Origin: a virus
Taxonomy: Duplodnaviria > Caudoviricetes
Length of the DNA: 57,055 nt
Virus record (IMG/VR): IMGVR_UViG_3300046048_000470
Span: 1 to 57,055 of that record
Direction: 5' to 3' (one strand)
Position numbers and translations under genes: made by a program. The notes beneath the pieces are model-generated. The model did no database searches. It saw nothing but the letters and a program-made list of their open reading frames with translations, and was not told where the DNA came from. Shown piece by piece: positions 15,453 through 57,055 of this stretch. Each line of letters opens with the position of its first letter. Positions within the stretch are counted from its first letter, which is position 1.

Positions 15453-15455
15453 CCC

Positions 15456-24413: not shown

Positions 24414-24427
24414 CGTCTGGTTTGTGG

Positions 24428-28657: not shown

Positions 28658-28693
28658 CCTGCGCCCCAGTGTGGGGCACAGAACAGCCGACAA

Positions 28694-34888: not shown

Positions 34889-35305
34889 TCAACTGATTTT
34901 CACCGCGGGATGTTCTGCGGTCGGTTCGGAATCCGCTGACACCGGCACCGCCGGCCAGTCGACCAGCCAATCGGTAGCGCCAGCGTCTGCTTTCTGACGC
35001 CACTGCCGAGCCGTGACCCTGGCGTCAAGCGCCGACGACCGGAGATCGTCGAGATACCAATGCCCGGGGTTGAGCCCGTGAACGATCAGGTCATCGGCCA
35101 ATTCGTCGCGGAACACCGCGTCACGAATGCTGTTGTCGGCCTGGGCCGAGTAGAACGCCTGCTCTGCCTTGTCGGCAGGAACAGACGCCCTGAGCTGCTC
35201 GACCCTTCTGCGTGGAAGGATCGAGCGTGCCAGATCCACAATGGATCCGGCGGAGACAGCTGCCATGGTTGAGACAGCCAGGATGATCAGACCGAGATCG
35301 GTCAC
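34889..35305 (-). CDS. Membrane-anchored hypothetical protein
   Basis: Hydrophobic N-terminus; coupled to RuvC. Confidence 0.6.
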   Translation of the reverse strand: MTDLGLIILAVSTMAAVSAGSIVDLARSILPRRRVEQLRASVPADKAEQAFYSAQADNSIRDAVFRDELADDLIVHGLNPGHWYLDDLRSSALDARVTARQWRQKADAGATDWLVDWPAVPVSADSEPTAEHPAVKIS

Positions 35306-39987: not shown

Positions 39988-40020
39988 GAGCCCCGCCGGC
40001 TCGCTGTACCGGCGGGGCTC
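39988..40020. terminator. Hairpin downstream of helicase
   Basis: 12-bp stem gagccccgccgg/ccggcggggctc, no U-tract. Confidence 0.5.
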
Positions 40021-40050
40021 CCGCTGCCTCCAAAGGGGAGAAGGGGAGGG

Positions 40051-41538
40051 CTACCCCTTGGAGACGGGACCGGCCGCAGCCGGGACCTTGCCAGCCAGAT
40101 CGACAAGCGTGTCATCAAGGCATGTCTTCGCTCGGCTCGCCGCGACATACATCAACCGCAACTCAGCCGTTTCGACGTCGGCGCCGCGAGGGAAATCGTC
40201 GAGCAGCCGGACCGATGGCCACTCGCCACCCTTCGACTTGTGAGCGGTCGAGCAGACGACGTCAGCCTGATGGATGTTCCGTGGCTGGATCGTGTCGGCC
40301 AGCATCGCTTTCAGCTTCCGGCCGCCGTACTGGTCGACCAGGTTGACCATGACCTTGAGATCTCTGCCGCCCGGGTCGTGCTCGACGTAATCGAGGACCT
40401 GGCCCCAGTCGTCGAAGCATGCAAGCTCGGGATGGTCCGACCGGCGCCCATCGACCAGTTTCTGCGCCTCGCCAGCAAACCACTCGATCTGCCCGGTACC
40501 GCCCTGGATAGCGACCCGCTTACCGTCGTCCATCTGCCCGAGGGCCGAAGCGACAACAGCGCCATTGGTCCGCCCCAGAATGCAATCAGGGTTCGCCACG
40601 CGCTCGCCGACTGTGCCCGGCTTACCCGCACCGGTCACCTTGACGCCGGCCCCGAGCCGGTCGAGGACCAGGTTCGCCCGTTCAGCGATCTCCGGCCCGA
40701 AACGGAACGACTGGGTCAGCTGGCACCGCTGGTCAACCTTGGCTTGCGCCAAAGCGTCAACCGCGCCAGCCCACTCGTAGATGGCCTGCTGCCGGTCGCC
40801 GACGTAGATCAACTGAGCATGGCCTTGGCCCTCGACCACGGACCGCATGACATCGCTAGCGTCCTGGGCCTCGTCAAACATGATGACGTCAGCATCGATG
40901 TACGGATCTCGTTGAGACCACATCTTCAGGTAGTGGCCGTGCTCGAACCGGAACAGGCCGTCTCGCGGATCCTGCAGATCACGCCAGATCGTCTCGGCCA
41001 GGGTCAGAATCCGGGGTGCGAGCTTGTCGTGGTTCTCCCACTCGCCTGGAGCGTCTATTCCGGGCATCCGGTAGACGTGCCGGTACCCGAGCGACGGGTC
41101 AGCGGTCTGGCAGAACCGGCCAACGGTCGCGACCGCTGCGGTCGCCAACGCCGTCGGCCAGATCTCCTTCGTTTCCTCACCAAGGTCGACGATCACTGGG
41201 GTGTCGAGATCGAGCTTGAGGGCTTGAGCGAGCTGACGGGCCGACAACCGGCGGCTGTCGTTCAACCGTTGCTTGTATTCCTTGCCGACGGCCTGAAACG
41301 CCAGGCCGTGAGCGGTCGAGCAGCGAACGTTACGGGGGAAACTGCCCTTCGAGTCGTCAACGATTTTCCGGTTGAAAGCGACGTACTGGAGAGTCTTCTG
41401 CCGCATCGCTTCAGCGATGAGTCGGAGCGTGCTCGTCTTCCCCGCTCCCGCTAGCGCCTCGATAGCCATGCTGCGACCGGTCGATGCCAGGTCGACCGCA
41501 TGGGCCTGTTCGTCGGTGGGATCAAAGTCTGTAGCCAT
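40051..41538 (-). CDS. UvrD/Rep-like SF1 helicase
   Basis: PTDEQ, ALAGAGKT, DEAQD, VGD.QQAIY, LTQSFRFG, STAHKSKGGEW, YVA.SRAK. Confidence 0.92.
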   Translation of the reverse strand: MATDFDPTDEQAHAVDLASTGRSMAIEALAGAGKTSTLRLIAEAMRQKTLQYVAFNRKIVDDSKGSFPRNVRCSTAHGLAFQAVGKEYKQRLNDSRRLSARQLAQALKLDLDTPVIVDLGEETKEIWPTALATAAVATVGRFCQTADPSLGYRHVYRMPGIDAPGEWENHDKLAPRILTLAETIWRDLQDPRDGLFRFEHGHYLKMWSQRDPYIDADVIMFDEAQDASDVMRSVVEGQGHAQLIYVGDRQQAIYEWAGAVDALAQAKVDQRCQLTQSFRFGPEIAERANLVLDRLGAGVKVTGAGKPGTVGERVANPDCILGRTNGAVVASALGQMDDGKRVAIQGGTGQIEWFAGEAQKLVDGRRSDHPELACFDDWGQVLDYVEHDPGGRDLKVMVNLVDQYGGRKLKAMLADTIQPRNIHQADVVCSTAHKSKGGEWPSVRLLDDFPRGADVETAELRLMYVAASRAKTCLDDTLVDLAGKVPAAAGPVSKG

Positions 41539-41594
41539 AACCACGACCTTACACCGCGTGAACCCCAACCGGCAACCGGGGTTAACGATTTCAG
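41525..41594 (-). repeat. 70-bp stop-promoter-start element, copy 1
   Basis: Identical to 56541..56610; contains upstream TGA, TTGCCG-N18-TAAGGT and ATGGCTACAGACTT. Confidence 0.95.
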
Positions 41595-41854
41595 GTTGTG
41601 GCTGAGTGAGGGCCAGACGAGTCGGGTACCGGGGCCAGGAGATCCGCCACTATCCCCCTAGTCGTCACGCTCGGCAGCTTCGGGCGCTTGATCCCCGCAG
41701 CCCGAGACGACGCGGTCGCCGCCGCCAACCACTGGTCGTCAGTCCACGCCGACACCTGACCTGCCGACACCCCAATCGACCGGGCATACCGGGCGATGTG
41801 ACCGGCCTTGTTCGCCCGGCCTTCTGCCTCGAAATCACGTTCGTTCGTAGCCAT
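41591..41854 (-). CDS. Hypothetical protein
   Basis: Leaderless TAACGT-N6-ATG; starts ATGGCTAC. Confidence 0.7.
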   Translation of the reverse strand: MATNERDFEAEGRANKAGHIARYARSIGVSAGQVSAWTDDQWLAAATASSRAAGIKRPKLPSVTTRGIVADLLAPVPDSSGPHSATT

Positions 41855-41874
41855 CACACCACGTTAGCGACCGG

Positions 41875-42120
41875 TCAGTCAGACACAAGCGGGCCGAAAG
41901 CTACCGGTTGGTCGCCGGACCAGTACAGAACCCTGGTCCCGCGCACCACAGCCGCGGCGGGTACAGAGTCCAGCATCGGCATCGGCCGACCCGAAACGAC
42001 GTAGATCCGGGTCGAGCCAGTCGTCACCTCAATGTTCTGGACGGTCCCAATCAGGAATTGGCCCGATGGTGTCTCGGTCTGGACTCTGCCCTGAATGGCT
42101 TTAGCCAACGACGTCCTCAT
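41875..42120 (-). CDS. Small tail-tip protein
   Basis: GTV....MPMLDS....GTRVL...FG pattern after minor tail genes. Confidence 0.6.
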   Translation of the reverse strand: MRTSLAKAIQGRVQTETPSGQFLIGTVQNIEVTTGSTRIYVVSGRPMPMLDSVPAAAVVRGTRVLYWSGDQPVAFGPLVSD

Positions 42121-42124
42121 GCCG

Positions 42125-43873
42125 TCACAGTAGCTCGACCGACCATGACGAGATCGACGGAGCCGACGACCCCTGAACACCGCCGATCGAATGCATCCCA
42201 GCGAACGCACCGACACGGCGCGTGTCGGTCACGCCAAGCACCTCGGTGCCTTCCCACTCGACCGAGATCGTCGAGCCTTCGCATGCCAGCACAAGAGACC
42301 GATTCGACGGATCCTGACCGGTCGAATACGCAGCCAGTTCAGTGACCTTCGCGCCGGCCTGCCACATCTCCAACCGGATCCGACCCGACGCGTCGACCAC
42401 CGCTGCGTAGCAGTCGAACTGCCCCGACGACCGACCCGCCGGCCCGATCCACTTGCCAGCAGGGACAGCACCGATCTGCGAGTAGACAACGAAATCGGTT
42501 GAACACAAAGGCGTGTTCCAGACCGCCAGCGAAGGTGTCCCGTTGTGCCTGTTGATCGCGGCGCTGTCGTAGATCGCCCACGAGTAAGCAAGCTCGGTCC
42601 ACCTCGGCGAACCAGGCGCATCTTCCAAGTCTTCGAGGTTCTGGTTCGCACGATCGAACGGATCCGACGCGGCAGAGACGCACACCAAACCAGGGTCAGC
42701 CGGGTCGCCGTAACCGATCTGGGGATCCCACACCCCGCGCAGCGTGACCTGCTGCAGCGAACCAGCGTCGATCGGGAGCGCCCCGATCGAGCGGACCCGG
42801 TACAGGCCGTCGGCCCCGAGACCGTCGAGCCACAACGCCACCATGTCCCCGACCCGCATAGCCGGATTCGGTGCGATCTCGATATCGACGAGGGCCGGGC
42901 CGACACCGATCCGGCGCAACCGTGCGTATCCGGCGGTCACCATCTGCGACGGTGAACCAACATGATCCCAGGTCACCGACTCGATTGAGACCTCACCAGG
43001 GCCACCGTAGAAACCGTCCGAACCTGGGTCGGTGTCCCACACCGGGACCGTGAAACTCGATCCGGGCACGAGCAGACCGCCACCCGAGACAAGCACCCCC
43101 TGGGGGGTACGGGTCGACCAGCGCCGAGACCCACTATCGACCGGTAGGCCCCCGCCTTCGACACCGTAGATCCACTGCTCTCCCGCTGATTCAGTTGTCG
43201 GGGGAACCTGCTGCGACAGGATCCGGCCGTCCTCATCAGCGGTCAACTCATGACCCACAGAGCCGAGCAGGATCTGGACTAGCTCACTGATCGGCCGCCC
43301 AGCCGGGAAACTCCCAGCCGCCGGCATCGTCCATCCCGTCTCCGTCAAATCGAAGTCGTCGAGAACGATCGACAGGAGCCTGCCCACAACAGTTTCCACA
43401 AGTTCGCCGTCATCCCAAGGGAACTGGTCGACCAGGTTCGCCCGGATCGGTCGGCCAGGGTCGACAAGGCGCAACTCGATCGGTTCCACGACACCCCGAC
43501 GGTACGTCGCGACCGCTTCGTCGACCAGCAGCGTCGCCTGAGTCCACAGATTCCCGAGGAGCCCCGCACGGATACGGACGAAGTTGCCCGATTCTGGATG
43601 CAACAGCGACCCCGCTCCGTCTGGCACCAACGACACGTCACCGGCCGCGACCCGCAGCGTCATCGTCCGCGACAAAGTCCGGACCGGGTCGAGATCCAAC
43701 GGTGTCCCCCCCGCTGCCCAACGGACAACGCCATTGACGGCATCCGCGTCGCTGGTGGTGGCCAGCAGAGCGCCGGTCGAGTCGACCAGCTCAACAGTCC
43801 GCTCTGTCTCCAAGCTCTGACCGGAACCAATCAGCCCAGTCGCCGCGGTCGTGTAGTCAGTGAACCGGCTCAT
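42125..43873 (-). CDS. Minor tail protein (tail-tip hub-like) with C-terminal beta-sandwich
   Basis: Position; RT.TL...LLHP..., PNPA...GD.V motifs. Confidence 0.7.
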   Translation of the reverse strand: MSRFTDYTTAATGLIGSGQSLETERTVELVDSTGALLATTSDADAVNGVVRWAAGGTPLDLDPVRTLSRTMTLRVAAGDVSLVPDGAGSLLHPESGNFVRIRAGLLGNLWTQATLLVDEAVATYRRGVVEPIELRLVDPGRPIRANLVDQFPWDDGELVETVVGRLLSIVLDDFDLTETGWTMPAAGSFPAGRPISELVQILLGSVGHELTADEDGRILSQQVPPTTESAGEQWIYGVEGGGLPVDSGSRRWSTRTPQGVLVSGGGLLVPGSSFTVPVWDTDPGSDGFYGGPGEVSIESVTWDHVGSPSQMVTAGYARLRRIGVGPALVDIEIAPNPAMRVGDMVALWLDGLGADGLYRVRSIGALPIDAGSLQQVTLRGVWDPQIGYGDPADPGLVCVSAASDPFDRANQNLEDLEDAPGSPRWTELAYSWAIYDSAAINRHNGTPSLAVWNTPLCSTDFVVYSQIGAVPAGKWIGPAGRSSGQFDCYAAVVDASGRIRLEMWQAGAKVTELAAYSTGQDPSNRSLVLACEGSTISVEWEGTEVLGVTDTRRVGAFAGMHSIGGVQGSSAPSISSWSVELL

Positions 43874-46800
43874 TCGGCGACCTCTACCAACGTGAACGAA
43901 TGCTCGAACGCGTCACGGAGACCGGTCGACTCTGCAGCGGTCGGCCGCCACCTCTGCAGCTGCCGCTGCCGATCCGAGGAGAGCCGCATCAGCCACGCTT
44001 CCCCGAGGATCCCGACGACACGGATCGTCAACCCCGAGAAGATGACGGCCTCGACCGCCAGACGCTCCGCTTTCGATCTGGTCCGCAACGTCATCGTCAT
44101 CACCTTGCCGAGCCGTTCCCCGGATGTGACCAGCCCCCCGCCCGGCTCGAAAGCAGCCACAGACGGAACCGGGTCGATCTCGCTGATAGCGGACACCTCG
44201 ACCTGAGTCGACAACGCCGGATCGGATGGGACCACGAACAACCAAGCCACCGGAGTCGTGTCGACACCTGCCGTGCCGATCTGGTCCGGGGCCGATGTCT
44301 CCGTCATCGCTCCATCGTCGAACGCAACGGCATAGGACACCGTTTCAGCGGCCGGAGCGTAGACATCGTCGAGATCATTCGACGACGACGGAGTGACAAC
44401 GAACGGAGATCCCTCGGTCAGCTCCCACGTCGCGCCGCCATCCGTCGACCGTTCGAGCCATGCCCTCGACACCGCCGCCGGGGCCACCGCAGCGACGGTC
44501 ACAGCACCGGTCGCCGGCCCGTAGACCGGTTCTGTTCCCGACTGGTCAGGTGTTGTCGCTGGCGCCCCGGAAACGTCGAAGTTGTCGACCGACCAGGCCG
44601 ACGCGACCAGCAGACTCGACGTGATCGACGACCACGCACGCACCGCTACCGTGCACGCACCTCGGCCGAGAGGCGCCGCGGTGAGCGACAACGACCGGAC
44701 CAGCGACCCTGGCACCCGACCCGACCCGAAAACGATCTCCCCGGTAGCCGGGCCGAGCGGATCAGCCGGCGCCGTCGCCGCATCAGGATCCTGGCTCGAT
44801 CCCTGCACAACCAGAACCTCGTAGTAGGTCTGAGCGAAACCGCCGGCAGACGAGTAATCCCAGGTGATCGGGTCGCCAGGATCATCAGGGCCGACCACGT
44901 TCGAGACGACCGGGCCGCCTTCCTCGTAGCGGACCGTCACGCGTGCCCAGTAGATCCGATGGTTCGACAACGCGGGATGCCGTGAGCTGGAGATCAGAGC
45001 GATCCCGAAACGGTCGTAGTCGTTCAACGATGTTCCGTCGGCCAGGGTCGTCCAGAAGTTCGAGACGACCGTCGTCACGCCGCCCCCAGACTGTGGCGTG
45101 TACCCGACCTGCTGCTCTGCGGCCAGGTGGACCCCGCCGCCAGAGTCGATGCCGACCAGGGCCGCCCGAAGCTGGTTCGGGACCGACGACGAATGAGCGA
45201 GCTCGATCCGTGCGCCAGTGATCACCGCATCAGCTGGGATGCCGTCCAGGTCTACCTCGACGATCTCGAACATGGAGCCAGCGGCCGAAGCGATATCGAT
45301 CCAGTCGGTTGTACCTTCGTCGTCGATGACCGACCACAACGCCGACCCGGCAGAGGAACCAACGAGCGGCTTCAACGCGACAAGGATCGTCGACCACGCC
45401 TGATCGCCCCCGGTCCACGAAGATGACCCGGCAGATGCCGCTGCCGCAGCGACCGGCGGCGACGAAAACACGCCCATCGTCATAGCGTCGCCCAGAGCCT
45501 CGGCCGCCACGGTGTACCCCGCCGGCGCGGTCCCGGCCGATGGAACACCGATGATCTGAGCCCCTGCTTTGGCCTTCGCCAGAACGGCCAGGACCTTCGC
45601 CCCAGACGTCACCGGTGTGACAGACCCGTAGGTGGCGTTCGAGCCCGACCCGTCTGACACCTCGGAGCCGAGCGCCTCGATCAGGTCGGCCGTGTCAGAC
45701 TTGGACGGATCGAGGACAACGAGCACCGCCGCCCATGAATGGTTCCCGTCATGGTCCGACACTCTGACATCGATGGCCGATCCCGCCGTGTAGCCGCTGA
45801 TCAGATGACGGAACACATGCCACTGCGGTTCGTAGGTGTTGTCCCGAGGGATGTTGAACGACGATTCGAGCGTGAAATCTTCGCCGGCAGACCCGACGAC
45901 GACAGTGTCAACAACCATCCCAGCGCCAGCGACACCAGCGGCCACCTCAGTGATCCCGATCGCTCCGTCGGCCGATGTCATCAGCGACTGGTCGGCGCCG
46001 GCCAGGGCGCCAACGAACTCGACAAGGAGCGACGATCCCGGGAGCGGGCCGCCGGTCACAACTACGTTGTTGAGCCCGACCGTCGACAGCGCCTCAAGCG
46101 CAGTCTCAAGCTGAGCTGCAGTCAGGTTGTACGGCAAATCCGCGGCGGTCTGGCCACCGAAGACCAGCGGAAACGTCCCCGACGTCTTAGTCGACTGGAC
46201 AGACTGGACCTCGTTGACTGGGTCAGTGTTGCTTCCCGACACGGTGATTTCTGCCACGTCGGTCAGAGCGTAAGTCGCGTCGAACTCGACCCGGATTGGC
46301 GCTGTTTGGAGCGGGCCGCCGGTCACAACTACGTCGCCCGGGGCGATGTTCGACAGCGCCTCAAGCGCAGTTTGGATCGTGGCCGCCGACGCGGTATCAG
46401 CTATCGACCCGGTCGTTTGCCCGGAGAAGGTCAGAGTCCGAGATCCTGAACCGCTGAAAGCTGTCAGTAGTTGGACCTCGTTGAGCGCCGCCAAGGCCAC
46501 ATCGCCAGTGGCCAGCGCTGCCGTTGCTGTCTCGTCTGACACAGCAACGAAGACAACCACCGGGACTTCAGACGTCGCGGCCGGTCGGAGCACATCGATC
46601 GCTGCGTACTCGTTGGAGAAGTTGAGCCCAGTCATCGCCGGAGGGTTGAAGCTCCCCGCAGCCTGGTCCTGGAGCATCGCCGAAACCTGCGGATTCCGGT
46701 ATCCGCTGTTCAGCTTCGCGCTGTTCAACACTTCCGGCCAGCCCGACGGAGCGACAGGGATCGTGTACCCCGCTGACACCGCGTCGCCGCCAGCTGTCAT

Positions 46801-47502: not shown

Positions 47503-47505
47503 GAG

Positions 47506-50500
47506 TCAGCTTCCTACTAGTTGGTTGCCAAGATCTCTGGCGACACGGTCAAGGGCATCGTCGACCTTCCGGCCGACTTCCTCGGCCAGTCTGCTCTCGT
47601 CCATCCCAGGGGCCGCGTTGATCTCGATCGGTATCGCCACATCAAGCCGGACATTCGCACGAGCTGTCAGCACATCAGCCGACCGGCCGACGGTCCCAGT
47701 CACCCCACCGTTGGCGAACACCCCGAGGATCTGACCGACCTGAGAGAACACATCGAGGGCGGGCCCGCGTTTCCCGAGCCCGAGCGGGATGTATGCCTCG
47801 CCCCCGGTTTCCGGTTCAGCAAAGAACCTCCCGACCGGTGCCGCTGAATAGATTTTCGCCTGGCCTGGCCGCTCGATAGTCGTTCCCGCCGGCAGATTGA
47901 ACCCGCCGTCAGCGAACGATCCCCACGGCCTGCCTTGCCCATCCCAGACACCGCCGTCAGCGTTCCGAGTCACAGACCTAGAGACCGTGGTCAACGTCAC
48001 CGTTTTCGAGCGGAACGACCCGAGCCGGTTGATCACGGAATTGATGACACCCGACGCCCTATCGATCGCTCGCAGCTCCGCCGTGTAAGTCCGAGCGTAG
48101 ATCGTCGCGAGCGCACGAGCAGCGTTAGTAGCCGCGATCGCCCGAGCCGGGTCAGCTGTGATCTGAGCGGTGTAGTCAGCAAATTTGTAGGCCGTCAGGA
48201 GCGCTATCAGGCCGATCCGTTCCGCCTTCGCGTTCGACGCGTCAGCGGTCAACTGAGCGGTGTAGTCATCCCCTGCGTAGGCGTCAGCCGCAGCGCCGGC
48301 CTGACCGACCTTCGCCAGAGCGCTGGTGATATCAGCGCCGACGGTCGGTATCGCCTCGATCTGGTCGATCTGGGTCAGCTCCGACCGGATCTCTGACGCG
48401 TCGGCATCGAACGGTGCCGCGTCGATCGAGGCGAGAGCATCGACTTGAGTAGAGTCGACCTCGTCAAGCAAGGCGAGCATCCGTGCCAGCTCAGCGTCAG
48501 CTGACGACGTATCGACCTCGGTGGTCGCCCTCGCTACCCGAGCGTCCCAACCGGTCATGAACGCGTCGAGGTTCTCTCGTGTCGGTCCGCTGTTGTCGTC
48601 CAGCTCGGTCAACGCCCTCGCTACCCGGCCATCCCAACCGCTTATGAACGCGTCGAGCGCTGCCCGCTCATCCGCGGTTTTGTCGACAAGGAGAGCATCG
48701 ACGATGATCTCCCGCTCGATCTTCTTCTGCTCCGACAAATACGCTTCGACGTCTGCTTTCGCCTCGGCAGCGTTGGTGATGATGTTCGCCAGAGTTGTTT
48801 CCGAGACGAGACCCTGCGCCGCTACCAAGTCGAGGATTTCCTGCCGGCTCAAACCAGCAGACGCGCCCAGGTCGAGGAGGGTCAGAACGTTGTTCGCCTG
48901 GATCGCCTGCAACTCATCCGCCGAAGCGCCAGCCGCGGCCTGAGCAACCGTCAGGTCGTACATCGACTGGGTCAGAGCAACGAAGTTCTCTCGGTTCCGT
49001 TCGGAGTCGAACGCCTCCGCCGCAGCGTTGTACGACACCTGAGCTTCAGTCAGCTGCTCCTGGATGAACGCCGCTGCAGCCCGAACGTCGTTCGCGGCCT
49101 CGATCGCTGACTGCAGTTCCGACGTCGCCCCGATCAGATCGTAGGTCGTTCGGATCTGTTCGAGCATCGTGTCGATCTGGCCTTGCGAAGCCGACTCGAC
49201 GTCGTACCAAGCTTCAGCCATCGGCGCTATCACAGAGAGCAGCTCGGCCGAGATCGCCGACAGAGCTTCGCCCCTGGCCTCCAAGTCTTCGCTGAACAGC
49301 GAAGTCAGATCAACCCCTTCCGTGATCGCAGCAAGGTTCTCGATCGACGCTGCCGACACACCGAGCAGATCTGCGTAGTCCGCGATCGTCGGGTTGCCTT
49401 CGAGAAGGTTGTCGATCGTTTCTTTCTGCACATCGTTCGACAGCTTCAGATTCTCGATGTATTCCGCTAGCACGGCCTGGACGTCGAGCAGTTCGGTCGT
49501 CGTGCCCTGCAGCAGAGCGTTGTAGTTGCCGGTCGCGTCCACGGCGCCTTCGACCGCCAACTTCGACACACCCAACTGATCGGCCAAGTACTCGATCCGT
49601 CCGGCGAACCTCGCGGCGTTGTCCTTGTCCAGCTCTTCGTTCAGCTGCTCGACCCGCTCCTGGGCGACCTTCAGATCCCTGTTCTCACCGCCGATCGAGG
49701 TAGCGCCAGCGACAACAGAGTTGAACCAACGCTCAACAAACCCGGAGCCTTCAGCGTCCCGGATCTCCGCGTTGAGTGACGCTATTTCGGCCTCGATCGA
49801 GCTGACCGCCTGAACCGTCGCCGCTGCCTTCTGTTCCGAGACGCCCTCGCTGAGCATCTTCACCAGCGACTCATTTGCTGCGCTCGCGTCTTTCTCGATC
49901 GAGCGTGCCGCCTGAGCTGCCAGCAGGAACGCCGCTCCGAGCGCGACCATCGCCGCCGTCACCGGATTGATGCCAGCGCCGAGCGTGGCCAACGAACCGC
50001 CGAGCCCCGTCGTCGAGCCACGAAGCACCCCGAGAGCGTTCCCGGACAGAGCAGCATTGACAGCCAGCTGACCGAGGCTGGTCGCCGTCGTCAACAGCGA
50101 CCCCCGGGCCAGCAACGCCAGAGCAGCCGCTGCAGCGATCACCGCGGGAGGTAGCAGGTTGATCGCACCGAACACGGTCTCGGTCACCGCCGACAATGCA
50201 GAAAGCACGATCACCAGCGCGTCGACTGCCCCACCAGCGCCAGCGAACGCACCAACGATCTGGAGGGCGCCAACAGCGAGGTTCCCGAGGAACGTCCCTA
50301 GCTGTTTCGCCGCGGGCCCGAGGATCGTCACCAACTGAGTGATCGCGTCTCGGGCCAGGTCGATACCCGAGGCGAACAGGCCGAGCGCTGGCGAACCGAT
50401 AGTGATCGCCAGCGCCGTGAATTGGTTCTTGAGAGTCGAGAGTTTCGCTGCGACGGTCTCCAACCGCTTGTTGTACTCCTCGGCCGCCTGACCGCCGACG

Positions 50501-51519
50501 GTGTAAGCGTTGCTGGCCAGAGCCAACTGTTCCCGCACAAACCCTGAGTTGAGAGCGAGGAGCCGGAGAACTTCCGATGTGCGGAGCCCATCGATCTTTA
50601 GCTCTTTCAGCACGCCAGTGATCGACTTGCCCTGACGGATCGCCTCGCCCAAGCCTTCACCGAACAGGATCAACGCCTCAACCGGATTCGTTCGAGCGAT
50701 CTCAGCAAATTCAGCTGGGAGCAGACCAGCGGTGTCTGCCAGGGTCTGCAGCTCTTTCCCGCCGTTGATCGCAGCATCAGAGATCACTGTGATGATCTTC
50801 GACAGAGCAGAACCGCCGGCCTCGGAACGGATACCCAAGCTGGAGAACGACGACGCCAACGCCAGGATCTCGTCTTCCGCGGCGCCGGCCACGGTGAACG
50901 CCGACGCCAACCGCAGCGAGAAATCGACGATCTGGCTTTCCGTCGTCGCCGAATTGTTGCCCAGCTCGACAATGACGTCGGCGACCTTGCCGATGTTTTT
51001 CGCCCCGCCTCCCGTCACGTTCAGGAACCTGGCGAGCGACTGTGACGCCTCCTCAAACGACAGATCTGTTGTTTCTCCAAGCTGAGCGATTGTCTTCGTG
51101 AACTTGATGATGTCCGGCGCCTTGACACCCAACTGTCCGGCGTTCGCCGCGATGTCAGCGAGGTCGTTCGCCGACGTCGGCATGATCGTCGACAACCCGA
51201 GCAGCTCCGACCGGATCCTCCCCAACTGCGCTGGAGTACCGTCGACCGTCTTCTTCACACCAGCGAACGCGGACTCGAACTGGATCGCCGGACGGAGGAC
51301 CGCTCCGAGCCCGGTCGCCAACAGGCCGACACCGATACCGACACCGGCCAGAACTTTCTGCCCCGTGGTCAGCGACCCGAACGCAGTGTTCATCCGCTGC
51401 AACGACTGAGTGACCCGCTTCTCGGCCGATGTGACCGACCCAGTGAACGCACCTAAGCCGCGTTGTGCCCCCGCCGCGTCGGTTTCGAGCAGGATGCGGA
51501 GCTTCAGCTGGTCGGCCAC
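47506..51519 (-). CDS. Tape measure protein
   Basis: About 1340 aa, Ala-rich; FESAFAGVKKTVDG...AGQLG...LGNN.ATTE domain; hydrophobic centre. Confidence 0.92.
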   Translation of the reverse strand: MADQLKLRILLETDAAGAQRGLGAFTGSVTSAEKRVTQSLQRMNTAFGSLTTGQKVLAGVGIGVGLLATGLGAVLRPAIQFESAFAGVKKTVDGTPAQLGRIRSELLGLSTIMPTSANDLADIAANAGQLGVKAPDIIKFTKTIAQLGETTDLSFEEASQSLARFLNVTGGGAKNIGKVADVIVELGNNSATTESQIVDFSLRLASAFTVAGAAEDEILALASSFSSLGIRSEAGGSALSKIITVISDAAINGGKELQTLADTAGLLPAEFAEIARTNPVEALILFGEGLGEAIRQGKSITGVLKELKIDGLRTSEVLRLLALNSGFVREQLALASNAYTVGGQAAEEYNKRLETVAAKLSTLKNQFTALAITIGSPALGLFASGIDLARDAITQLVTILGPAAKQLGTFLGNLAVGALQIVGAFAGAGGAVDALVIVLSALSAVTETVFGAINLLPPAVIAAAAALALLARGSLLTTATSLGQLAVNAALSGNALGVLRGSTTGLGGSLATLGAGINPVTAAMVALGAAFLLAAQAARSIEKDASAANESLVKMLSEGVSEQKAAATVQAVSSIEAEIASLNAEIRDAEGSGFVERWFNSVVAGATSIGGENRDLKVAQERVEQLNEELDKDNAARFAGRIEYLADQLGVSKLAVEGAVDATGNYNALLQGTTTELLDVQAVLAEYIENLKLSNDVQKETIDNLLEGNPTIADYADLLGVSAASIENLAAITEGVDLTSLFSEDLEARGEALSAISAELLSVIAPMAEAWYDVESASQGQIDTMLEQIRTTYDLIGATSELQSAIEAANDVRAAAAFIQEQLTEAQVSYNAAAEAFDSERNRENFVALTQSMYDLTVAQAAAGASADELQAIQANNVLTLLDLGASAGLSRQEILDLVAAQGLVSETTLANIITNAAEAKADVEAYLSEQKKIEREIIVDALLVDKTADERAALDAFISGWDGRVARALTELDDNSGPTRENLDAFMTGWDARVARATTEVDTSSADAELARMLALLDEVDSTQVDALASIDAAPFDADASEIRSELTQIDQIEAIPTVGADITSALAKVGQAGAAADAYAGDDYTAQLTADASNAKAERIGLIALLTAYKFADYTAQITADPARAIAATNAARALATIYARTYTAELRAIDRASGVINSVINRLGSFRSKTVTLTTVSRSVTRNADGGVWDGQGRPWGSFADGGFNLPAGTTIERPGQAKIYSAAPVGRFFAEPETGGEAYIPLGLGKRGPALDVFSQVGQILGVFANGGVTGTVGRSADVLTARANVRLDVAIPIEINAAPGMDESRLAEEVGRKVDDALDRVARDLGNQLVGS

Positions 51520-51570
51520 GCCCCATAGTGCCCCCACGGCGCCCCCCCAGGGCCGTGGTGCGCACCCTAG

Positions 51571-52110
51571 TTACTGGTCGCCGTCGTCCTTCAACGGATC
51601 CCCCGGAGCGCGGTGAGCGACCCGGTACGACGCCCCAGCCTTCTGTTCCTCTTCCGACAGGTCCCGCTCCGCCCGACGACCCACGTCGCAGAACCAGCAG
51701 GTGTGGAGAACCCACTTCCACATGCCCCGTTCCAACTCCCGGTAGTTCTCGTCGAGCACTTCCTTCGGGTGGACATGGCAGTTCGGACACCGGTCGGCCT
51801 GGTCCTCAACAGCGAGGATGTCCTGCGCCAGCTCGGCCGCCAAGTCTTCTGTCGACCAACGATCCCTCACCTCGGAGAAAGGCAGGTTCGACCGTCGAGC
51901 GATCCGCATGATCAACCGGTGAGAGCCCTCCGATTCCAACGCCTGCTTGAACGCCGCGACCTCCGGCTCGATCCCCGCCCACCGGGCCAGCGTGTGAGCA
52001 GTAGCAAGCTCGAAGACCGCCATGGCCCGATCGGGCGGCCCGTAATGGTCGGAGCCGTGCATCGCCGCGTGTTCGGCAGCAGTCGGCGGCCGCGTGCCGC
52101 CTGGCTTCAT
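51571..52110 (-). CDS. Tail assembly chaperone, downstream part / pre-TMP protein
   Basis: Position; WSTED...CPNC...CWFC. Confidence 0.6.
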   Translation of the reverse strand: MKPGGTRPPTAAEHAAMHGSDHYGPPDRAMAVFELATAHTLARWAGIEPEVAAFKQALESEGSHRLIMRIARRSNLPFSEVRDRWSTEDLAAELAQDILAVEDQADRCPNCHVHPKEVLDENYRELERGMWKWVLHTCWFCDVGRRAERDLSEEEQKAGASYRVAHRAPGDPLKDDGDQ

Positions 52111-52832
52111 CGGATAGCGCGGCAAGCAGCGAGCGCAGAATCAAACAGCGCACCGCATTCACCCTCGGACCATGGCGGCTCGGCCTCCTGGACCACATCG
52201 CCGTCGTCGTCGAGGACCTCGGGCCGGCCGTCCCAGATCCAGCCGGCCTCTTCAGCCGTCAAGGCCGGCGCCTTCGCGCACGCCGCGACCAACGCCGGCG
52301 GGAACCGATCCGGGTCGTAAGGCAGCACCTCGAAGGGGCGGCCGTGCTTTTTCAGCATCACAGCGTGTGCCTCGATCTGTTCGGGAGAGGCAGGGAACGA
52401 CCGGATCAACCGCGAGTAAGCGACCCGACCGATGTCCTCGAAGACGAACAGGGCCGTGACCGGCGCCGCAGCTGCCTCAGCTAGATGAGCATGCCGTTGG
52501 GCCGCTTCGAGCTTCTTAGCCATCCCCTCATCAGCACCCCGCCCGAACGCCACCGAGAGATTGATCAACTGATTGATCTGCTCGACCGCTGCCCTGGCCT
52601 CGTCCCGAGCGTCCGCCAGTTCCGAATCGAGACAGATCGGCTGCGTGAACCGGGTCGGCTTCTTCAGGCCAAACACCTCAGCCGCGGTCATCTCCCGACC
52701 GTGGATCCCTTCGACCTCGGTCTTCGGGCCTTGCGCCGCCGGCAGTTCGAGCTTCGCGACCCTCTTCGGTGGAGTGACCCGCCCCGCCTTCTTCGCTGCG
52801 GGCTTCTTCGCGGGCTTCTTCGATGCAGCCAT
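52107..52832 (-). CDS. Tail assembly chaperone
   Basis: Between tail tube and TMP; F.F..IGR..Y..L...P, FPPALVAAC, WSEGE...LF. Confidence 0.7.
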   Translation of the reverse strand: MAASKKPAKKPAAKKAGRVTPPKRVAKLELPAAQGPKTEVEGIHGREMTAAEVFGLKKPTRFTQPICLDSELADARDEARAAVEQINQLINLSVAFGRGADEGMAKKLEAAQRHAHLAEAAAAPVTALFVFEDIGRVAYSRLIRSFPASPEQIEAHAVMLKKHGRPFEVLPYDPDRFPPALVAACAKAPALTAEEAGWIWDGRPEVLDDDGDVVQEAEPPWSEGECGALFDSALAACRAIR

Positions 52833-52883
52833 CTGGTTTCCCTTGCTGTCGCTGGGCCGCCCCCGACTCAGGGCGACCCAGCC

Positions 52884-52904
52884 ACGCTACCCCCCAAGGG
52901 GTGA
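52884..52904 (-). promoter_or_regulatory. Operator-like palindrome overlapping -10 TAGCGT upstream of tail chaperone
   Basis: CTACCCCCCAAGGGGTGA. Confidence 0.55.
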
Positions 52905-52913
52905 CTCCTCGAC

Positions 52914-53384
52914 CTACGCGGCCTGGACGCACTCGTAGGGCACACCGGTATTCATCGTCACGTCGAAGATGTTCGGCGCGTTGCGTGCCTTCCGCCGGTT
53001 CCGGTCAGCGACCAGAACCGGGAATAGCTGGCCCTCCTCACCGGAGCCAAGCCCGTCCTGAGCGATGAAGATGAAAGCGTCGAGATCGACGACCATCAAC
53101 GAGTAGATCGTCGAGCTGGCCGAGTCCTTGTACCACGACAAAACACCGTCGGGGTAGGTCAGCTCGCCGGACACCTGACCGGTGAGCGGACCCGCGTAGC
53201 CGGGAGTCGGGAGCGACGTCGGAGCCGCCTCGAAACCCTGGATATCGACAAGCTCCTCAGCCTGCTTGGTGCCAACCAGATTGGTGCCGGCAGCGATCTC
53301 CGCCTGAGTCGGCGCCGTCGGGGTCGACGGGAGCGTGGTCAACAGGTAGACAGCGATACGGCCGTCGAGCGTAAAGCGTGACAT
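52914..53384 (-). CDS. Major tail (tube) protein
   Basis: APTQAEIAAGTNL...GF...PTP motif of actinophage tail tube proteins. Confidence 0.8.
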   Translation of the reverse strand: MSRFTLDGRIAVYLLTTLPSTPTAPTQAEIAAGTNLVGTKQAEELVDIQGFEAAPTSLPTPGYAGPLTGQVSGELTYPDGVLSWYKDSASSTIYSLMVVDLDAFIFIAQDGLGSGEEGQLFPVLVADRNRRKARNAPNIFDVTMNTGVPYECVQAA

Positions 53385-53587
53385 CAGGCCTTACCCCCCA
53401 GCACCGGGGCCGGCTTCGGGGCGCCAGCCTTGACCGGCGTGCCCTTCGCGTCGGCGACCTCGGTCCAGCCGTTCCCGACGTACCGGTCGAGAACAACGGA
53501 GTGAACCTCCATAACCTTCTCGCCGTCGTCCCGTTTCACGAAATGCGAGCGGTGTGGCAGCTCGCGAGGATCACTGGTTTCAGTCAT
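53384..53587 (-). CDS. Small hypothetical protein
   Basis: TGATG overlap with tail tube gene; GWTEV motif. Confidence 0.55.
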   Translation of the reverse strand: MTETSDPRELPHRSHFVKRDDGEKVMEVHSVVLDRYVGNGWTEVADAKGTPVKAGAPKPAPVLGGKA

Positions 53588-53637
53588 GGCAGCATCGTCG
53601 CCCAGGCGTTCGAGGTCGAGCGCGGTGCGGACCGGTA

Positions 53638-54123
53638 TCAGCTGTCCCGGTGCACCCACACATCGACCAGCACACCAGCGTTCGAGTAGCCGCCCTCACC
53701 GAAATTCGGGACCTTCCCGGCCCGTTCCCGCTTCATGACCGAATGGCCAGGGACCGTCAACGCGTGCGTGTAATCCCGAGGATCTGAGTCGGCCCTGTCG
53801 ACAAGGATCCCGTTCGCGACAGCGGCCAGGGCCTGCGCTGCGTCGCGTTGCGGGCCGACCGTCGTCACCTGAAACCGGAGGACCATCGTCCCGTCACGCT
53901 GCCCCGCGTAGCCCTCAGCCGGGAACGCGTCAGGCGAGATCGCGTAGACGATCGCGTACGGAAACGCCTCCCCCGAGTCAGGGTCGACCTGGGACAACGG
54001 ATCAACCGATCCGGCCACGAACGGAGAACCACCGTCACCGACCAGGACACCATCGGGCAGTTCCGCACGGAGCAACGCAACCACGGCATCGGTCACCAAG
54101 GAATCGTCGACACCGCTTGTCAT
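53638..54123 (-). CDS. Tail terminator protein
   Basis: VGDG..P, PYAIVY, FQVTTVG...AQAL. Confidence 0.7.
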   Translation of the reverse strand: MTSGVDDSLVTDAVVALLRAELPDGVLVGDGGSPFVAGSVDPLSQVDPDSGEAFPYAIVYAISPDAFPAEGYAGQRDGTMVLRFQVTTVGPQRDAAQALAAVANGILVDRADSDPRDYTHALTVPGHSVMKRERAGKVPNFGEGGYSNAGVLVDVWVHRDS

Positions 54124-54536
54124 GCTGCCCCCAACACCTTCGACACCTCAGCCAGGACCTGGTCTCCGCCCAACTGCAAGATAGCCGGCGCTGACGGGCC
54201 CGCGTAGGGGAACGGAGGCTGATCGAAGACCCGCCCGAGAATGTCCGGCCCAGAAAACCCGTATTCGAGCCTCGCCGCTTGCGGAGCGTTCGACCCGATC
54301 TGGATCGACCAAACCCCACCAGACACGCCGATGACTTGACCGACGATCGACCGCCGGAAATCACCGGTGATCACCCGAGGACCAGGCCTACCGGACGCCT
54401 TGCCCTTCATGATCCCCTCACCCCCAGCAGCGGTCCGCGCCATCGCCCGACCCACCGCCTGCCCGATCCCGCCGTCGAGCCGCTCCAACGCAGATATCAG
54501 CTGCGCAGCCCCAACAACCGACCCGAAAACGACCAT
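54120..54536 (-). CDS. HK97 gp10-like neck protein
   Basis: GP.V.TG..RRSI...IGSN.PQA.RLEYG...P.PY..P. Confidence 0.8.
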   Translation of the reverse strand: MVVFGSVVGAAQLISALERLDGGIGQAVGRAMARTAAGGEGIMKGKASGRPGPRVITGDFRRSIVGQVIGVSGGVWSIQIGSNAPQAARLEYGFSGPDILGRVFDQPPFPYAGPSAPAILQLGGDQVLAEVSKVLGAA

Positions 54537-54943
54537 CAGGCGCCAGCCGGCCCGGGCACAGTCGAATCGATTTCGAGCTCAAACCGCTGCAGCAGCTCGG
54601 TGCTGCCGGCCAGGACACGAACCACCCGGTACGCGCGGTCCTCAAGCGACCGGTCTCGGACCGACCTCGGGCGGACCACGCACCCGACCGTCACCCCTTC
54701 GGTACCGATCGGCAGGTCGAGATCGAACCGCTCGGTCACCAGCGTCTGCCCACCGTCAGACGCCTGCCGGTCTGCTGCCCTCGGCTCAAGGGCACACCGC
54801 CCGGCGTAGACCGTCTCGCCTGACGGGTACTCGACCGCCATCGTCGCCCGATTCAGGGTCCCCGGGGCGCTGGCCGTCGACTCGTAGATCTGGCAGGTAT
54901 CTAGCAGGTATTGGCGTGCGAGTGATTCCGAGGCGAAAGACAC
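54536..54943 (-). CDS. Head-closure (head-tail joining) protein
   Basis: DTC.I...T.YAGRC...LDLP...VG.VV; start may be the track start at 54979. Confidence 0.7.
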   Translation of the reverse strand: MSFASESLARQYLLDTCQIYESTASAPGTLNRATMAVEYPSGETVYAGRCALEPRAADRQASDGGQTLVTERFDLDLPIGTEGVTVGCVVRPRSVRDRSLEDRAYRVVRVLAGSTELLQRFELEIDSTVPGPAGA

Positions 54944-54950
54944 ACCGTCA

Positions 54951-55301
54951 TCATCGGGCAGCCGCCCGCCGCTGTTCAAGGTGCGCGGCGAGCGCTTCCC
55001 CCGCTGTCTCGCTCATCCCCTTCGACGCGAGCACCCCATCGATCTCTTCGGCGGTCAGCTCGACACCACCAGGGACAGCAACAATCGTTTCAGACGCCAC
55101 GAAATCCACGGCATCGATGTCTGCACGCAACACCAGCTCGAGGAGAGTGCCGGTACCGGTGATCTGGAAGTTCAGGGTCTCGACCGCTGCCGTGATATCC
55201 ACGCTCTCCCCGTTCATCGCCAACCGGATGAACGGCGCCGGATCGTCACCGATCGAGAGACGGACAGGAGCTGCGACGACCGGACCGGGAATTTGCTGCA
55301 T
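54951..55301 (-). CDS. Hypothetical protein heading the neck/tail operon
   Basis: Leaderless TATCGT-N6-ATG. Confidence 0.65.
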   Translation of the reverse strand: MQQIPGPVVAAPVRLSIGDDPAPFIRLAMNGESVDITAAVETLNFQITGTGTLLELVLRADIDAVDFVASETIVAVPGGVELTAEEIDGVLASKGMSETAGEALAAHLEQRRAAAR

Positions 55302-55426
55302 GACGCGACGATACCCACCACCCTGAGCAAGCCAGCAGGCTTCAGGGTCGGTGGGTATCAGTCTTTGAGTGACAGGCCAGCGCCGTTCGATGGCTACAAA
55401 GGTCGGCCGCCGGCCTGCCAGTAACC

Positions 55427-55579
55427 CTAGCTCTTCCGGCCGGTCTCCCCGTACTTCTGCTGCCGGCCGATCGACTTCGACGCGTCCACGGGCGGCCGAT
55501 CGGTAGGAGCGTCCTGCCGTCCGGTGCCGTTGATGTGTGTTTGCGACGGATCGCCGCCGTTGAAAGGTGACTTAGTCAT
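55427..55579 (-). CDS. Small hydrophilic protein (50 aa)
   Basis: RBS AAGGAG, ATGA overlap. Confidence 0.55.
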   Translation of the reverse strand: MTKSPFNGGDPSQTHINGTGRQDAPTDRPPVDASKSIGRQQKYGETGRKS

Positions 55580-55878
55580 CTCACTGTTCTCCTTGGTTGA
55601 GGTCTGTTTTTCGCGGCCGATGCGAACCCGGCCAGATCGTCGCCCGCCTGGTGCATGAACGCCCGGGCCGGCCCATGGCAGCGGACAGGCTCGGGCCGGC
55701 CCGAGCCCGCGTCGCGTCGACATTCGATAGCGGTCCACCCGTCTGGGCCGAGGGCGACGACGCCGAGCAGTTCAAGTTCGCCGTTGTGGTCGAGGCGAGC
55801 CAAGCATTCCCGAGTCCCGGCCTCGTCCATCGGCCTGTAGATCCGCATCATCGGAGCAGCTCCAACGATGATGGCCAC
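55576..55878 (-). CDS. Hypothetical protein
   Basis: C-terminal part of track ORF 55576..56001; start uncertain. Confidence 0.5.
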   Translation of the reverse strand: MAIIVGAAPMMRIYRPMDEAGTRECLARLDHNGELELLGVVALGPDGWTAIECRRDAGSGRPEPVRCHGPARAFMHQAGDDLAGFASAAKNRPQPRRTVR

Positions 55879-55900
55879 GTCACCCGGACCTCTGGGCTCT

Positions 55901-56071
55901 TCATGACGATGTTCTCCCCGAGCGGATGTTGTCGCCGGAGTCTCGGCAGGGTCCGCAGCAGTAGACCTGCCCGCGTGTCCCAAAGACGATGTCTGCGGCA
56001 TTGGCTAGCACCTGCTCACCGCAGTGCTTGCACCGGTACTCAGTGACTTCGATTCCGTTGATCTCGACCAT
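55901..56071 (-). CDS. Small Zn-finger protein (56 aa)
   Basis: RBS GAGGAG; CKHC...YCCGPC. Confidence 0.65.
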   Translation of the reverse strand: MVEINGIEVTEYRCKHCGEQVLANAADIVFGTRGQVYCCGPCRDSGDNIRSGRTSS

Positions 56072-56106
56072 GACGCTGTACTCCTCGATTGTTGGGAAAG
56101 TTGAAC

Positions 56107-56132
56107 CCCCTACCGGCCCGAACCGGTAGGGG
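56107..56132 (-). terminator. Hairpin after gene 56147..56554
   Basis: 10-bp stem cccctaccgg/ccggtagggg. Confidence 0.5.
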
Positions 56133-56146
56133 AGTGTTGCTGCTTG

Positions 56147-56554
56147 CTACTGCTGGCCTTCGCCGAGACCCGCGAACGGATCCGCTGGCTTCAGCACCGC
56201 GTCGAGCACCTTCTCGGCCTCGATCGTTTTCTCGATCAGCTCGAAGATCCGAGCCCGAGACGACCGGAACAGGCCCGGGTACTCCCCCGCCGGCAGCGTC
56301 GGCTTGCCGGCCTGCAGGTCGCGCATCAGGCCGATACCGGCCCAAATCGCCGGTTGGTTCTCGACGACAAGCATCCGCCGGAGATCCCGCAGAGCGTCGA
56401 GCTTGCTCATCGACTCGTCACGCTCGCTCATCTCCGAAGCGAAACGGTCGAGCGCCCGGCAGAAACTCTGCGCTTTGCGCTCGACCGCTAGAGCCGCGTG
56501 AGGGTTGACGTTGATGTGTGGGTTGCTGTTCGTCCGGTTGAAGTCTGTAGCCAT
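56147..56554 (-). CDS. Hypothetical protein
   Basis: Leaderless start inside the 70-bp element (MATDF). Confidence 0.75.
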   Translation of the reverse strand: MATDFNRTNSNPHINVNPHAALAVERKAQSFCRALDRFASEMSERDESMSKLDALRDLRRMLVVENQPAIWAGIGLMRDLQAGKPTLPAGEYPGLFRSSRARIFELIEKTIEAEKVLDAVLKPADPFAGLGEGQQ

Positions 56555-56610
56555 AACCACGACCTTACACCGCGTGAACCCCAACCGGCAACCGGGGTTA
56601 ACGATTTCAG
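56541..56610 (-). repeat. 70-bp stop-promoter-start element, copy 2
   Basis: Identical to 41525..41594. Confidence 0.95.
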
Positions 56611-56879
56611 TGTTTGGAGAGAAACGAGTCTCCCAACCTGGCCAGAAGCACCGTCTGATATCGCTTACCGAACCCGGCCCGAGAGATCCCCCCGAGCGCC
56701 TCCCGGACTTCGCTCTTGGTCGCGCCGGCCTCGAACGCACGAACGATCAGCTCGATCTGCCCGGCCTTCTCCGCCGCTGCAGCCTCGACCGCAGACGCCA
56801 GGCGGTCCTGCCGTGCCTGCTCTGTCACTCGGAGCGCCGCCAACGTCTCCAGGCGGATTGCTTCCGACACCTCACCCAT
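56607..56879 (-). CDS. Small HTH-like protein
   Basis: RBS GAAGGAAG; IVRAFEAGATKSEVREALGGISRAG. Confidence 0.7.
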   Translation of the reverse strand: MGEVSEAIRLETLAALRVTEQARQDRLASAVEAAAAEKAGQIELIVRAFEAGATKSEVREALGGISRAGFGKRYQTVLLARLGDSFLSKH

Positions 56880-56928
56880 GGTCTTCCTTCTTTCGTCGCT
56901 GAATGTTGAAGGTCGCCGCCGCTATCGA

Positions 56929-57055
56929 GCGGCGACGACCAGAACCTACTGGCAACCGGGGTTAACGGCCAACCGACGTTATTTTCTCGGGCCAGGCCTT
57001 GAACCTCAACGCCGCCGAACCACGGTGAGGCGCATCCCACCGGTAAACCGTGATC
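56929..57055. repeat. Terminal direct repeat, copy 2
   Basis: Identical to 1..127. Confidence 0.95.

Follow-up and report, generated by a model that had tools for sequence, protein, structure and literature searches.

What does a perfect 70-nt direct repeat do when it brackets the tail genes of a phage genome? The question is raised by the IMG/VR virus record IMGVR_UViG_3300046048_000470 (Duplodnaviria; Caudoviricetes), the whole 57,055 nt of which were analysed and are referred to here as the window. An earlier inspection of the letters (the sequence-only reading) had taken the two copies of the repeat for boundary sequences that make the whole tail region a swappable cassette. The explanation that we favour, and hold to be probable rather than secure, is that the repeat is a duplicated leaderless promoter–operator cassette, the tail-side copy of which was captured from the promoter of the helicase gene. 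The cassettes have the look of everyday gene switches, one being a copy of the other, rather than of a device made for swapping tails.

The first 127 nt of the window are the same as the last 127 nt (1–127 and 56929–57055), and its ends are classed by IMG/VR as direct terminal repeats, with a listed completeness of 74. This identity looks like the overlap of a circular assembly with a unit genome of 56,928 nt, and the record was therefore treated as a circle of that length. The two copies of the repeat, 41525–41594 (copy A) and 56541–56610 (copy B), match over exactly 70 nt in direct orientation, 15,016 nt from start to start, as had been claimed, and the bases that border them differ (41524 a versus 56540 g; 41595 g versus 56611 t). 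The repeat is the second-longest exact repeat of the circle; the longest measures 95 nt (27940/30642) and the rest are 28 nt or shorter. The longest repeats in five shuffles were 15–17 nt, and the 70-nt repeat is therefore real and not a product of chance.

Nearly all of the genes lie on the − strand, on which the gene for a 90-amino-acid (aa) protein is followed by copy B, then by the arc of tail-side genes (from 56554 to 41591) and finally by the cassette again as copy A. Read on this strand, each copy consists of C-TGA, AAT, an 18-nt dyad, an 18-nt spacer, TAAGGT, 7 nt and ATG GCT ACA GAC TT. The dyad, CGTTAACC-CC-GGTTGCCG, is imperfect, and its last six bases are the −35-like TTGCCG. The TGA closes the open reading frame (ORF) 41591–41857(−) in copy A and the ORF 56607–56879(−) in copy B, and the TGA, TTGCCG-N18-TAAGGT and the ATG are packed into 58 nt in both. 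The final 14 nt, followed by T or C, open both the helicase ORF and a 135-aa ORF, so that the two proteins share the start MATDF; only two of the next eight residues are alike and the proteins are otherwise unrelated, as are the 90-aa and 88-aa proteins encoded upstream of the two copies. The description of each copy as an upstream stop codon, a promoter and the first codons of two unrelated genes is thus accurate, the promoter being defined at the level of motifs. The nine starting bases ATGGCTACA (M-A-T) are common to three genes (334–336, 41536–41538 and 56552–56554, all on the − strand); the third of these, 34–336, has a Shine–Dalgarno sequence (SD) and no cassette.

The motif TTGCCG-N17/18-TAAGGT with a shared CAC-N-CGGTGTAAGGTCG occurs exactly three times, at 41546–41575(−), 56562–56591(−) and 762–790(+), and each occurrence falls between genes and is directed into one. 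The first T of TAAGGT precedes the ATG by 13 nt in copies A and B; apart from the hexamer itself, the stretch between them has no purine run resembling an SD. Leaderless genes of Actinobacteria are marked by a TANNNT signal some 12 nt ahead of the start codon, and they account for approximately 19% of genes on average (reported in part of PMC3160421). The host is probably an actinobacterium, because the window encodes a WhiB-like domain and because 128 of the 129 capsid matches, all below 31% identity, are actinophage records (Gordonia, Arthrobacter, Mycobacterium, Streptomyces and Tsukamurella). The cassette would accordingly be read as a sigma-A-type promoter, the −35 element of which is overlapped by the 18-nt dyad as an operator, with transcription predicted to start at or next to the ATG and to give a leaderless mRNA. 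This geometry would explain why the cassette must include the start codon. The AAGG inside TAAGGT, 8 nt before the ATG, could act as a weak ribosome-binding site on read-through transcripts.

A search of the whole record with the 70-mer retrieved a third, diverged copy (copy C; 747–795, +), which is 78% identical over 50 nt and the dyad of which contains the perfect 10-nt palindrome AACCATGGTT. The 17-mer GGCAACCGGGGTTAACG is present exactly at 41571–41587, at 56587–56603 and at 23–39 (duplicated by the terminal overlap at 56951–56967), and with three mismatches at 750–766(−), giving five matches in all versus 0.19 expected. The sequence-only reading had noted the 17-bp part at 23–39 and the stop codon of the gene 34–336 inside it, which is a TAA; what it missed, in counting two copies and this part, is that the element belongs to a four-site family centred on a helix-turn-helix (HTH) regulator gene. 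The consensus CGTWAACCNNGGTTGCCR, derived from the four sites, finds these four and none at one to three mismatches; at four mismatches the matches are near the shuffle level of 7–22. The dyads have the form CG-NN-AACC-NN-GGTT-NN-CG and all four are intergenic, that at 750–767 lying 57 nt before the ATG of the HTH gene. The dyad at 22–39 has been kept without a −10 element, which suggests that the dyad has a role apart from the promoter.

The control region around 750–767 is a quasi-palindrome of ~116 nt. It is mirror-symmetric, with TTGCCG/TAAGGT facing rightwards and TTTACG (755–750)/TACGTT (731–726), separated by an 18-nt spacer, facing leftwards, and the palindrome AACCATGGTT overlaps both TTGCCG (+) and TTTACG (−). 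An inverted repeat matching at 19 of 20 positions (700–719 versus 796–815; CAAGCCAGCAACC-R-AGGAGC) carries the SDs of the two divergent genes. The regulator, of 427 aa, has an HTH_3 (Cro/C1-type) domain at residues 264–318 (E = 1.3e-14), and its best PHROG families are transcriptional repressors. We infer that it is a candidate repressor reading all four predicted dyad sites, which it would bind as a dimer; one signal could then reach its own promoter, the divergent promoter, the tail-side operon (through copy B) and the helicase/recombination/replication operon (through copy A). The N-terminal part of the HTH gene also contains a 28-nt exact direct repeat (853–880 and 1078–1105, +; 225 nt apart).

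This arrangement resembles known phage control systems in part. In phage lambda, cI and cro are divergent and share operators, of which there are three in tandem. The window likewise has an HTH regulator gene and a small divergent gene, a short control region and a palindrome overlapping both −35 elements, but the palindrome is single, the small gene shows no HTH, no integrase is recognized among the scanned ORFs and the region has head genes on one side and tail genes on the other. The dispersed repressor sites of actinophages offer a second comparison. Those of phiC31 are inverted repeats in conserved intergenic copies. According to sections of PMC4557955 and PMC6550527, the stoperators of L5 and Bxb1 are asymmetric 13-bp sites, 18–30 per genome, which are bound by a monomer and oriented with transcription. 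The Streptomyces phage phiC31 also has multiple repressor-binding sites (on dispersed sites in actinophages, see also PMC9283540). The window shares with these phages several near-identical intergenic sites, one at the regulator's own promoter and others at predicted lytic promoters, and at least one site (22–39) is promoter-less and adjoins a stop codon. Unlike stoperators proper, the site is an 18-nt dyad in four copies.

Where did the second copy come from? By the same reasoning copy C would work at 78% identity; it is therefore recent copying or gene conversion, and not constraint, that the complete identity of copies A and B indicates. The coding end of the repeat falls in codon 5 (F), and the helicase residues F5-x-P-T-x-E-Q are conserved in homologues. 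Among 14 helicase loci, 11 N-termini were read (seven distinct sequences; three loci covering only the C-terminus were dropped), and F-x-P-T/S stands at the very N-terminus in five of the seven (MTKFTPS, MAQFRPT, KKFTPT, LFPPT and LTFTPT). This conservation suggests that the helicase gene is the native setting of the coding end. The partner gene behind copy B is an ORFan, for which a homologue search returned only itself. Copy B thus probably derives from copy A, a case of promoter capture. Past the repeat, copy B reads ACCGGACGAACAG, out of frame, against ACC-GACGAACAG in the helicase (codons T-D-E-Q); an equal score was reached in 33 of 2000 shuffles, and this residual match is suggestive only. 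Near-identical upstream regions before non-homologous genes have been read as promoter capture in work on promoter reuse and putative mobile promoters (Nijveen, Matus-Garcia & van Passel, 2012; part of PMC3575422), and the 70 of 70 identical nucleotides upstream of non-homologous genes in the window follow this pattern. In the sections of that survey which bear on the question (PMC3575422) cellular genomes are treated, without operators or phage modules, and the copy in the window differs further in taking in 14 nt of the donor's coding start together with the upstream gene's stop codon. Judged on its sequence, the element fits promoter reuse and only in part a lambda-like divergent region, and it does not belong with the stoperators, given their asymmetry and number, or with the stem-loop cassettes of T4-like phages considered below. 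The genome has a second recent intragenomic patch (27867–28037 versus 30560–30739), with 95 nt exact (27940/30642; 98 nt at 99%) and 49 nt at 92%; the patch encodes a CxxC...CxxC segment, with 48 of 60 residues identical, common to the WhiB-like 493-aa ORF and an unrelated 270-aa ORF.

A reason for the capture is suggested by the layout of the structural genes. Streptomyces phage ZL12 is the only cultured phage that matches the portal candidate (29% identity over 93% of the length). One contiguous block in ZL12 contains a terminase, the portal, a capsid, a MuF-domain protein (E = 3e-9), a Neck1-like protein (42% identity, E = 1e-21), a tape measure and a protein that has a 66-aa domain in common with the 1210-aa tail protein of the window. 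The window has its homologues up to the MuF-domain gene at 5.7–13.6 kb and its Neck1-like and tape-measure genes in the 41.6–56.5 kb arc, with the regulator region and its two hairpins separating the head-side from the tail-side genes. The split structural region that had been pointed out earlier is therefore real and, since ZL12 keeps the homologous head and tail genes contiguous, it is derived. One of the hairpins, at 2121–2156, folds at −34.1 and −35.6 kcal/mol on the two strands (z scores of −4.3 and −4.1; 0 of 200 shuffles fold as well); together with that at 56898–56927 it would close off the upstream units, so that a promoter before the tail-side genes is needed. We propose that the regulator region and the terminators came to separate the structural genes, that the tail genes would thus have been left without transcription from upstream and that copy B was then made from copy A. 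As one copy is apparently derived from the other, the repeat is probably linked to the rearrangement. The large terminase and the portal candidate are themselves separated by ~11 kb, which includes the endolysin gene (11632–26029, −; endolysin 21296–22333), an unusual order; in ZL12 the terminase and portal homologues are adjacent. The features discussed are listed in Table 1.

Table 1. Positions of the repeat copies, related sites and genes in the window
Feature	Position	Strand	Remarks
Copy A	41525-41594	-	TGA 41593-41591; dyad 41587-41570; TTGCCG 41575-41570; TAAGGT 41551-41546; helicase ATG 41538-41536
Copy B	56541-56610	-	TGA 56609-56607; dyad 56603-56586; -35-like 56591-56586; -10-like 56567-56562; ATG 56554-56552 (135-aa ORFan)
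Copy C	747-795	+	Dyad CGTAAACCATGGTTGCCG 750-767; TTGCCG 762-767; N17; TAAGGT 785-790; SD AAGGAG 809-814; ATG 824
Promoter-less fourth dyad copy, CGTTAACCCCGGTTGCCA	22-39 (= 56950-56967)	-	17/18 bases kept, no -10 element; holds TAA of ORF 34-336
HTH regulator gene, 427 aa	824-2107	+	Converges on end of head-side operon
87-aa gene	431-694	-	SD GAGGAG; divergent from regulator gene; no family match
100-aa ORF	34-336	-	Starts MAT...; stop inside promoter-less dyad
90-aa ORF	56607-56879	-	Preceded by SD and strong hairpin; TGA inside copy B
Terminator-like 13-bp G+C hairpin	56898-56927	-	Between promoter-less dyad and 90-aa ORF; -26.9 kcal/mol, z -5.2, 0/200 shuffles
Bidirectional terminator-like hairpin	2121-2156		Between ends of regulator gene (+) and head-side operon (-)
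135-aa ORFan	56147-56554	-	First gene behind copy B; MATDF start
Neck1/tail completion	54120-54536	-	PHROG, E 2.8e-9
Major tail, weak match	52914-53384	-	PHROG, E 0.0024
Two ORFs in chaperone position	51571-52832	-	
Tape measure	47506-51537	-	PHROG, E 1e-76
Large tail protein, 1210 aa	43870-47502	-	PHROG label
Large tail protein, 582 aa	42125-43873	-	PHROG label
Small ORFan	41875-42216	-	
88-aa ORFan	41591-41857	-	Last arc gene; TGA inside copy A
Helicase gene	40051-41538	-	Directly behind copy A
Erf-like annealing protein	37046-38362	-	Phage's own homologous-recombination function
RuvC-like resolvase	35302-35874	-	Phage's own homologous-recombination function
Replication initiator	32224-33378	-	
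WhiB-like gene, 493-aa ORF	27212-28693	-	
Small terminase	26026-26709	-	
Large terminase	24428-26029	-	
Endolysin	21296-22333	-	
Portal candidate	11632-13590	-	
Scaffold	10481-11230	-	
Capsid	8898-9941	-	
MuF-like minor head protein	5728-7737	-	
Further ORFs of head-side operon	down to ~2204	-	

Several results weigh against the regulatory reading. A scan with the Escherichia coli consensus called no promoter in 40000–57055, and the hexamers match this consensus at only seven of 12 positions. Placing the tail genes and the replication genes on one identical promoter would leave no early/late separation, which is unusual. The 427-aa HTH protein matched only itself or its HTH domain, with no relatives beyond these, and the divergent 87-aa gene gave no HTH match and no match to any family. 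Among the ORFs scanned (60 against PHROGs and 20 against Pfam) no integrase, partition (ParAB) or other lysogeny gene was recognized, so that the role of 'repressor' has no proven temperate life style behind it; no recombinase gene was recognized in the same set, which included all listed ORFs of at least 250 aa. Residual similarity is absent from the flanks upstream of the repeat, the same score being reached in 214 of 2000 shuffles, and the argument for the direction of copying consists of one conserved residue and a residual match with p of ~0.02.

If the regulatory reading is true, almost the whole lytic programme would run from two identical leaderless promoters and one divergent promoter, and a single set of four operators would form a compact circuit. 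The locus would also serve as a clear case of promoter capture, its polarity readable, alongside a rearrangement of head and tail genes. For now it amounts to a neat but rather ordinary duplication of a regulatory element, and the genome that contains it has no known relatives.

The alternative that survives best, although we consider it unlikely, is that the copies are boundary sequences selected for excision of the arc or its exchange between co-infecting phages through Erf and RuvC, with Campbell-type insertion of the circle into the early promoter. A length of 70 nt is sufficient for recombination by phage annealing proteins. The copies are perfectly identical and directly oriented, and the Erf-like and RuvC-like genes cited in support of the swapping proposal are indeed encoded. 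The predicted 41.9-kb product would join the 90-aa gene and the promoter to the helicase, and removal of the arc would restore the usual order of regulator region, promoter and helicase, the split being derived by comparison with ZL12. The geometry of the crossover that had been proposed is thus right, in that direct repeats bracket the arc and would yield circles of 41.9 and 15 kb with one cassette each; the products, however, would both be defective and dead ends when alone, and the only two full copies border an essential block. The four-site operator/promoter family also provides an ordinary regulatory reason for the element, and the data can be explained without a selected 'swappable cassette' function. 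The copies may recombine homologously as a by-product, which we do not think is their function.

The precedent for such exchange is the promoter-early stem-loop (PeSL) cassettes of T4-like phages, recombination between copies of which gives rise to indels and mini-circles (parts of Arbiol et al., 2010, PMC2839356, and Comeau et al., 2014, PMC4122927). Like PeSLs, each copy in the window leads compactly from a stop codon, through a sigma-70-type promoter (here at motif level) with a dyad in or around the −35 and −10 elements, to the next start codon (parts of PMC2839356 and PMC4122927), and the direct orientation would allow recombination to delete, insert or circularize the intervening DNA. 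The differences are considerable. PeSLs number approximately 50 per genome and lie in hyperplastic regions beside ORFans, compared with two full copies, one copy at 78% identity and one 18-nt partial copy here. They have an SD, whereas the genes behind the cassettes in the window look leaderless, and their stem-loop is stable and has been shown to terminate transcription, whereas the hairpin here is no better than shuffled sequence. In the window, moreover, the cassettes border a 15-kb essential block, their dyad is associated with an HTH regulator gene, and the phage is siphovirus-like with a probable actinobacterial host. As there is no stable stem-loop, and as copy number and distribution differ, the cassettes cannot be classed as PeSLs; they differ from att-like sites of site-specific recombination as well, no cognate integrase or recombinase having been recognized among the scanned ORFs. 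It is doubtful that PeSL-like mobile cassettes operate here outside T4-like phages, with the 15-kb tail block excised as a promoter-bearing circle and re-inserted by Erf and RuvC, although this would explain the split by the immunity region. If recombination were the true explanation, module shuffling by cassettes would be extended from the ORFan regions of T4-like phages to the core structural module of a temperate-type actinophage. Excision and swapping are geometrically possible, with PeSLs as precedent, and as a function appear unsupported.

The contents of the arc bear on the same question. Of the 16 ORFs scanned in 41595–56540, five have tail or connector PHROG labels and nine have no match. 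The claim that the interval holds all neck and tail genes is supported by these five, but 'all' is not certifiable, since the repeat-rich 492-aa ORF 2547–4025 lies outside. This ORF (−) has no family match, and its C-terminal half is made up of tandem repeats of ~20/40 residues (ESVGLTDAVTVAMGL-like; DNA period 60/120); its product may be a fibre or surface protein, with the gene placed outside the tail-side arc. The arc opens, on the copy B side, with five small ORFs that have no tail label, and there is consequently no clean functional border. The composition of the arc matches that of the rest, with a G+C content of 64.3% versus 64.1% and a tetranucleotide correlation of 0.984 (other 15-kb arcs, 0.977–0.991), which again speaks against exchange; a foreign origin of the arc is not supported by its composition.

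No relative with the element was found in the collections searched, a further point against exchange. A megablast of 41000–57055 against 50,697 phage records gave no match, an exact 23-mer gave none in IMG/VR and a degenerate operator-to-(−10) pattern gave none in IMG/VR or in metagenome contigs. The helicase had homologues at two loci in IMG/VR, the better of them 30% identical, and at 12 in metagenome contigs, where the best reached 46% and came from a contig of 5.5 kb. When 65 window proteins were compared with these 14 loci by tblastn, only the helicase matched, plus one terminase match (L012), and no context was shared; 600 pattern matches of TerL in genome contigs included no relative. 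From a sediment-metagenome run, which may be the source of this DNA, 13 records were obtained from ~21% of the run, and the only fully alike record was a 70-letter contig equal to the repeat, at a depth of 28.7, among k = 31 contigs, which in principle cannot separate recombinant from parental junctions across a 70-nt repeat.

A neutral origin is also improbable. Here the repeat would be the scar of an illegitimate rearrangement, copy B would have neither promoter nor operator activity and the tail genes would be read through from upstream. The identity extends into both neighbouring coding regions, as in a junction duplication, and the genome does contain the other unexplained recent patch duplication described above. 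Read-through, on the other hand, would have to pass the strong hairpin (z of −5.2) ~290 nt upstream of copy B, copy B alone offers a recognizable promoter motif ahead of the tail genes and a diverged form of this motif is found again at the regulator gene.

It is very unlikely that the element is a composite terminator–promoter, in which an AACCCC/GGGGTT RNA hairpin would stop or attenuate upstream transcripts and the promoter would restart transcription, with no repressor involved. Such a hairpin, AACCCCGG-N7-UUGGGGUU, can form directly behind the stop codon, and PeSLs have the same architecture (part of PMC2839356). Its folding energy of −12.9 kcal/mol is nevertheless weak and at chance level (z of −0.39; equalled by 53 of 200 shuffles), z scores of −1.5 and −1.4 were obtained for the 86-nt contexts, and no U-tract follows, so that a terminator role for the element is not supported. 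The likely terminators of the genome are far stronger (z of −4.1 to −5.2), and copy C and the fourth site (22–39) keep the 18-nt DNA dyad but not this hairpin. A main function of the dyad as an RNA hairpin or terminator is rejected on the weak fold relative to shuffles.

That two molecules sharing 70 nt were joined into one circle during assembly is highly improbable, even for a metagenome assembly, since the 127-nt end overlap suggests a final assembly word (presumably 127, from what we take to be usual assembler practice) longer than the repeat, so that each copy was crossed together with its flanks, and since the two arcs are uniform in composition and complementary in content, with the single tape measure found and all five labelled tail or connector ORFs in one and the terminase, portal, capsid, lysis and replication genes found in the other.

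Two further features of the window were observed. A tRNA-like piece at 366–423 (−), between the ORFs 431–694 and 34–336, has a 7-bp acceptor stem, a GGTTCGATTCC T-arm and one further hairpin but no D-arm. In Rfam it falls short of the threshold (mascRNA-menRNA, 23.7 bits; tRNA-Sec, 23.3 bits) and ARAGORN called no tRNA in it; it could be a relic tRNA or the core of an attachment site, but no integrase was recognized among the scanned ORFs. Finally, a perfect 27-nt inverted repeat connects 6613–6639, in the MuF-like head gene, with 53597–53623, in a small gene of the tail arc, compared with the 15–17 nt that are reached in shuffles.

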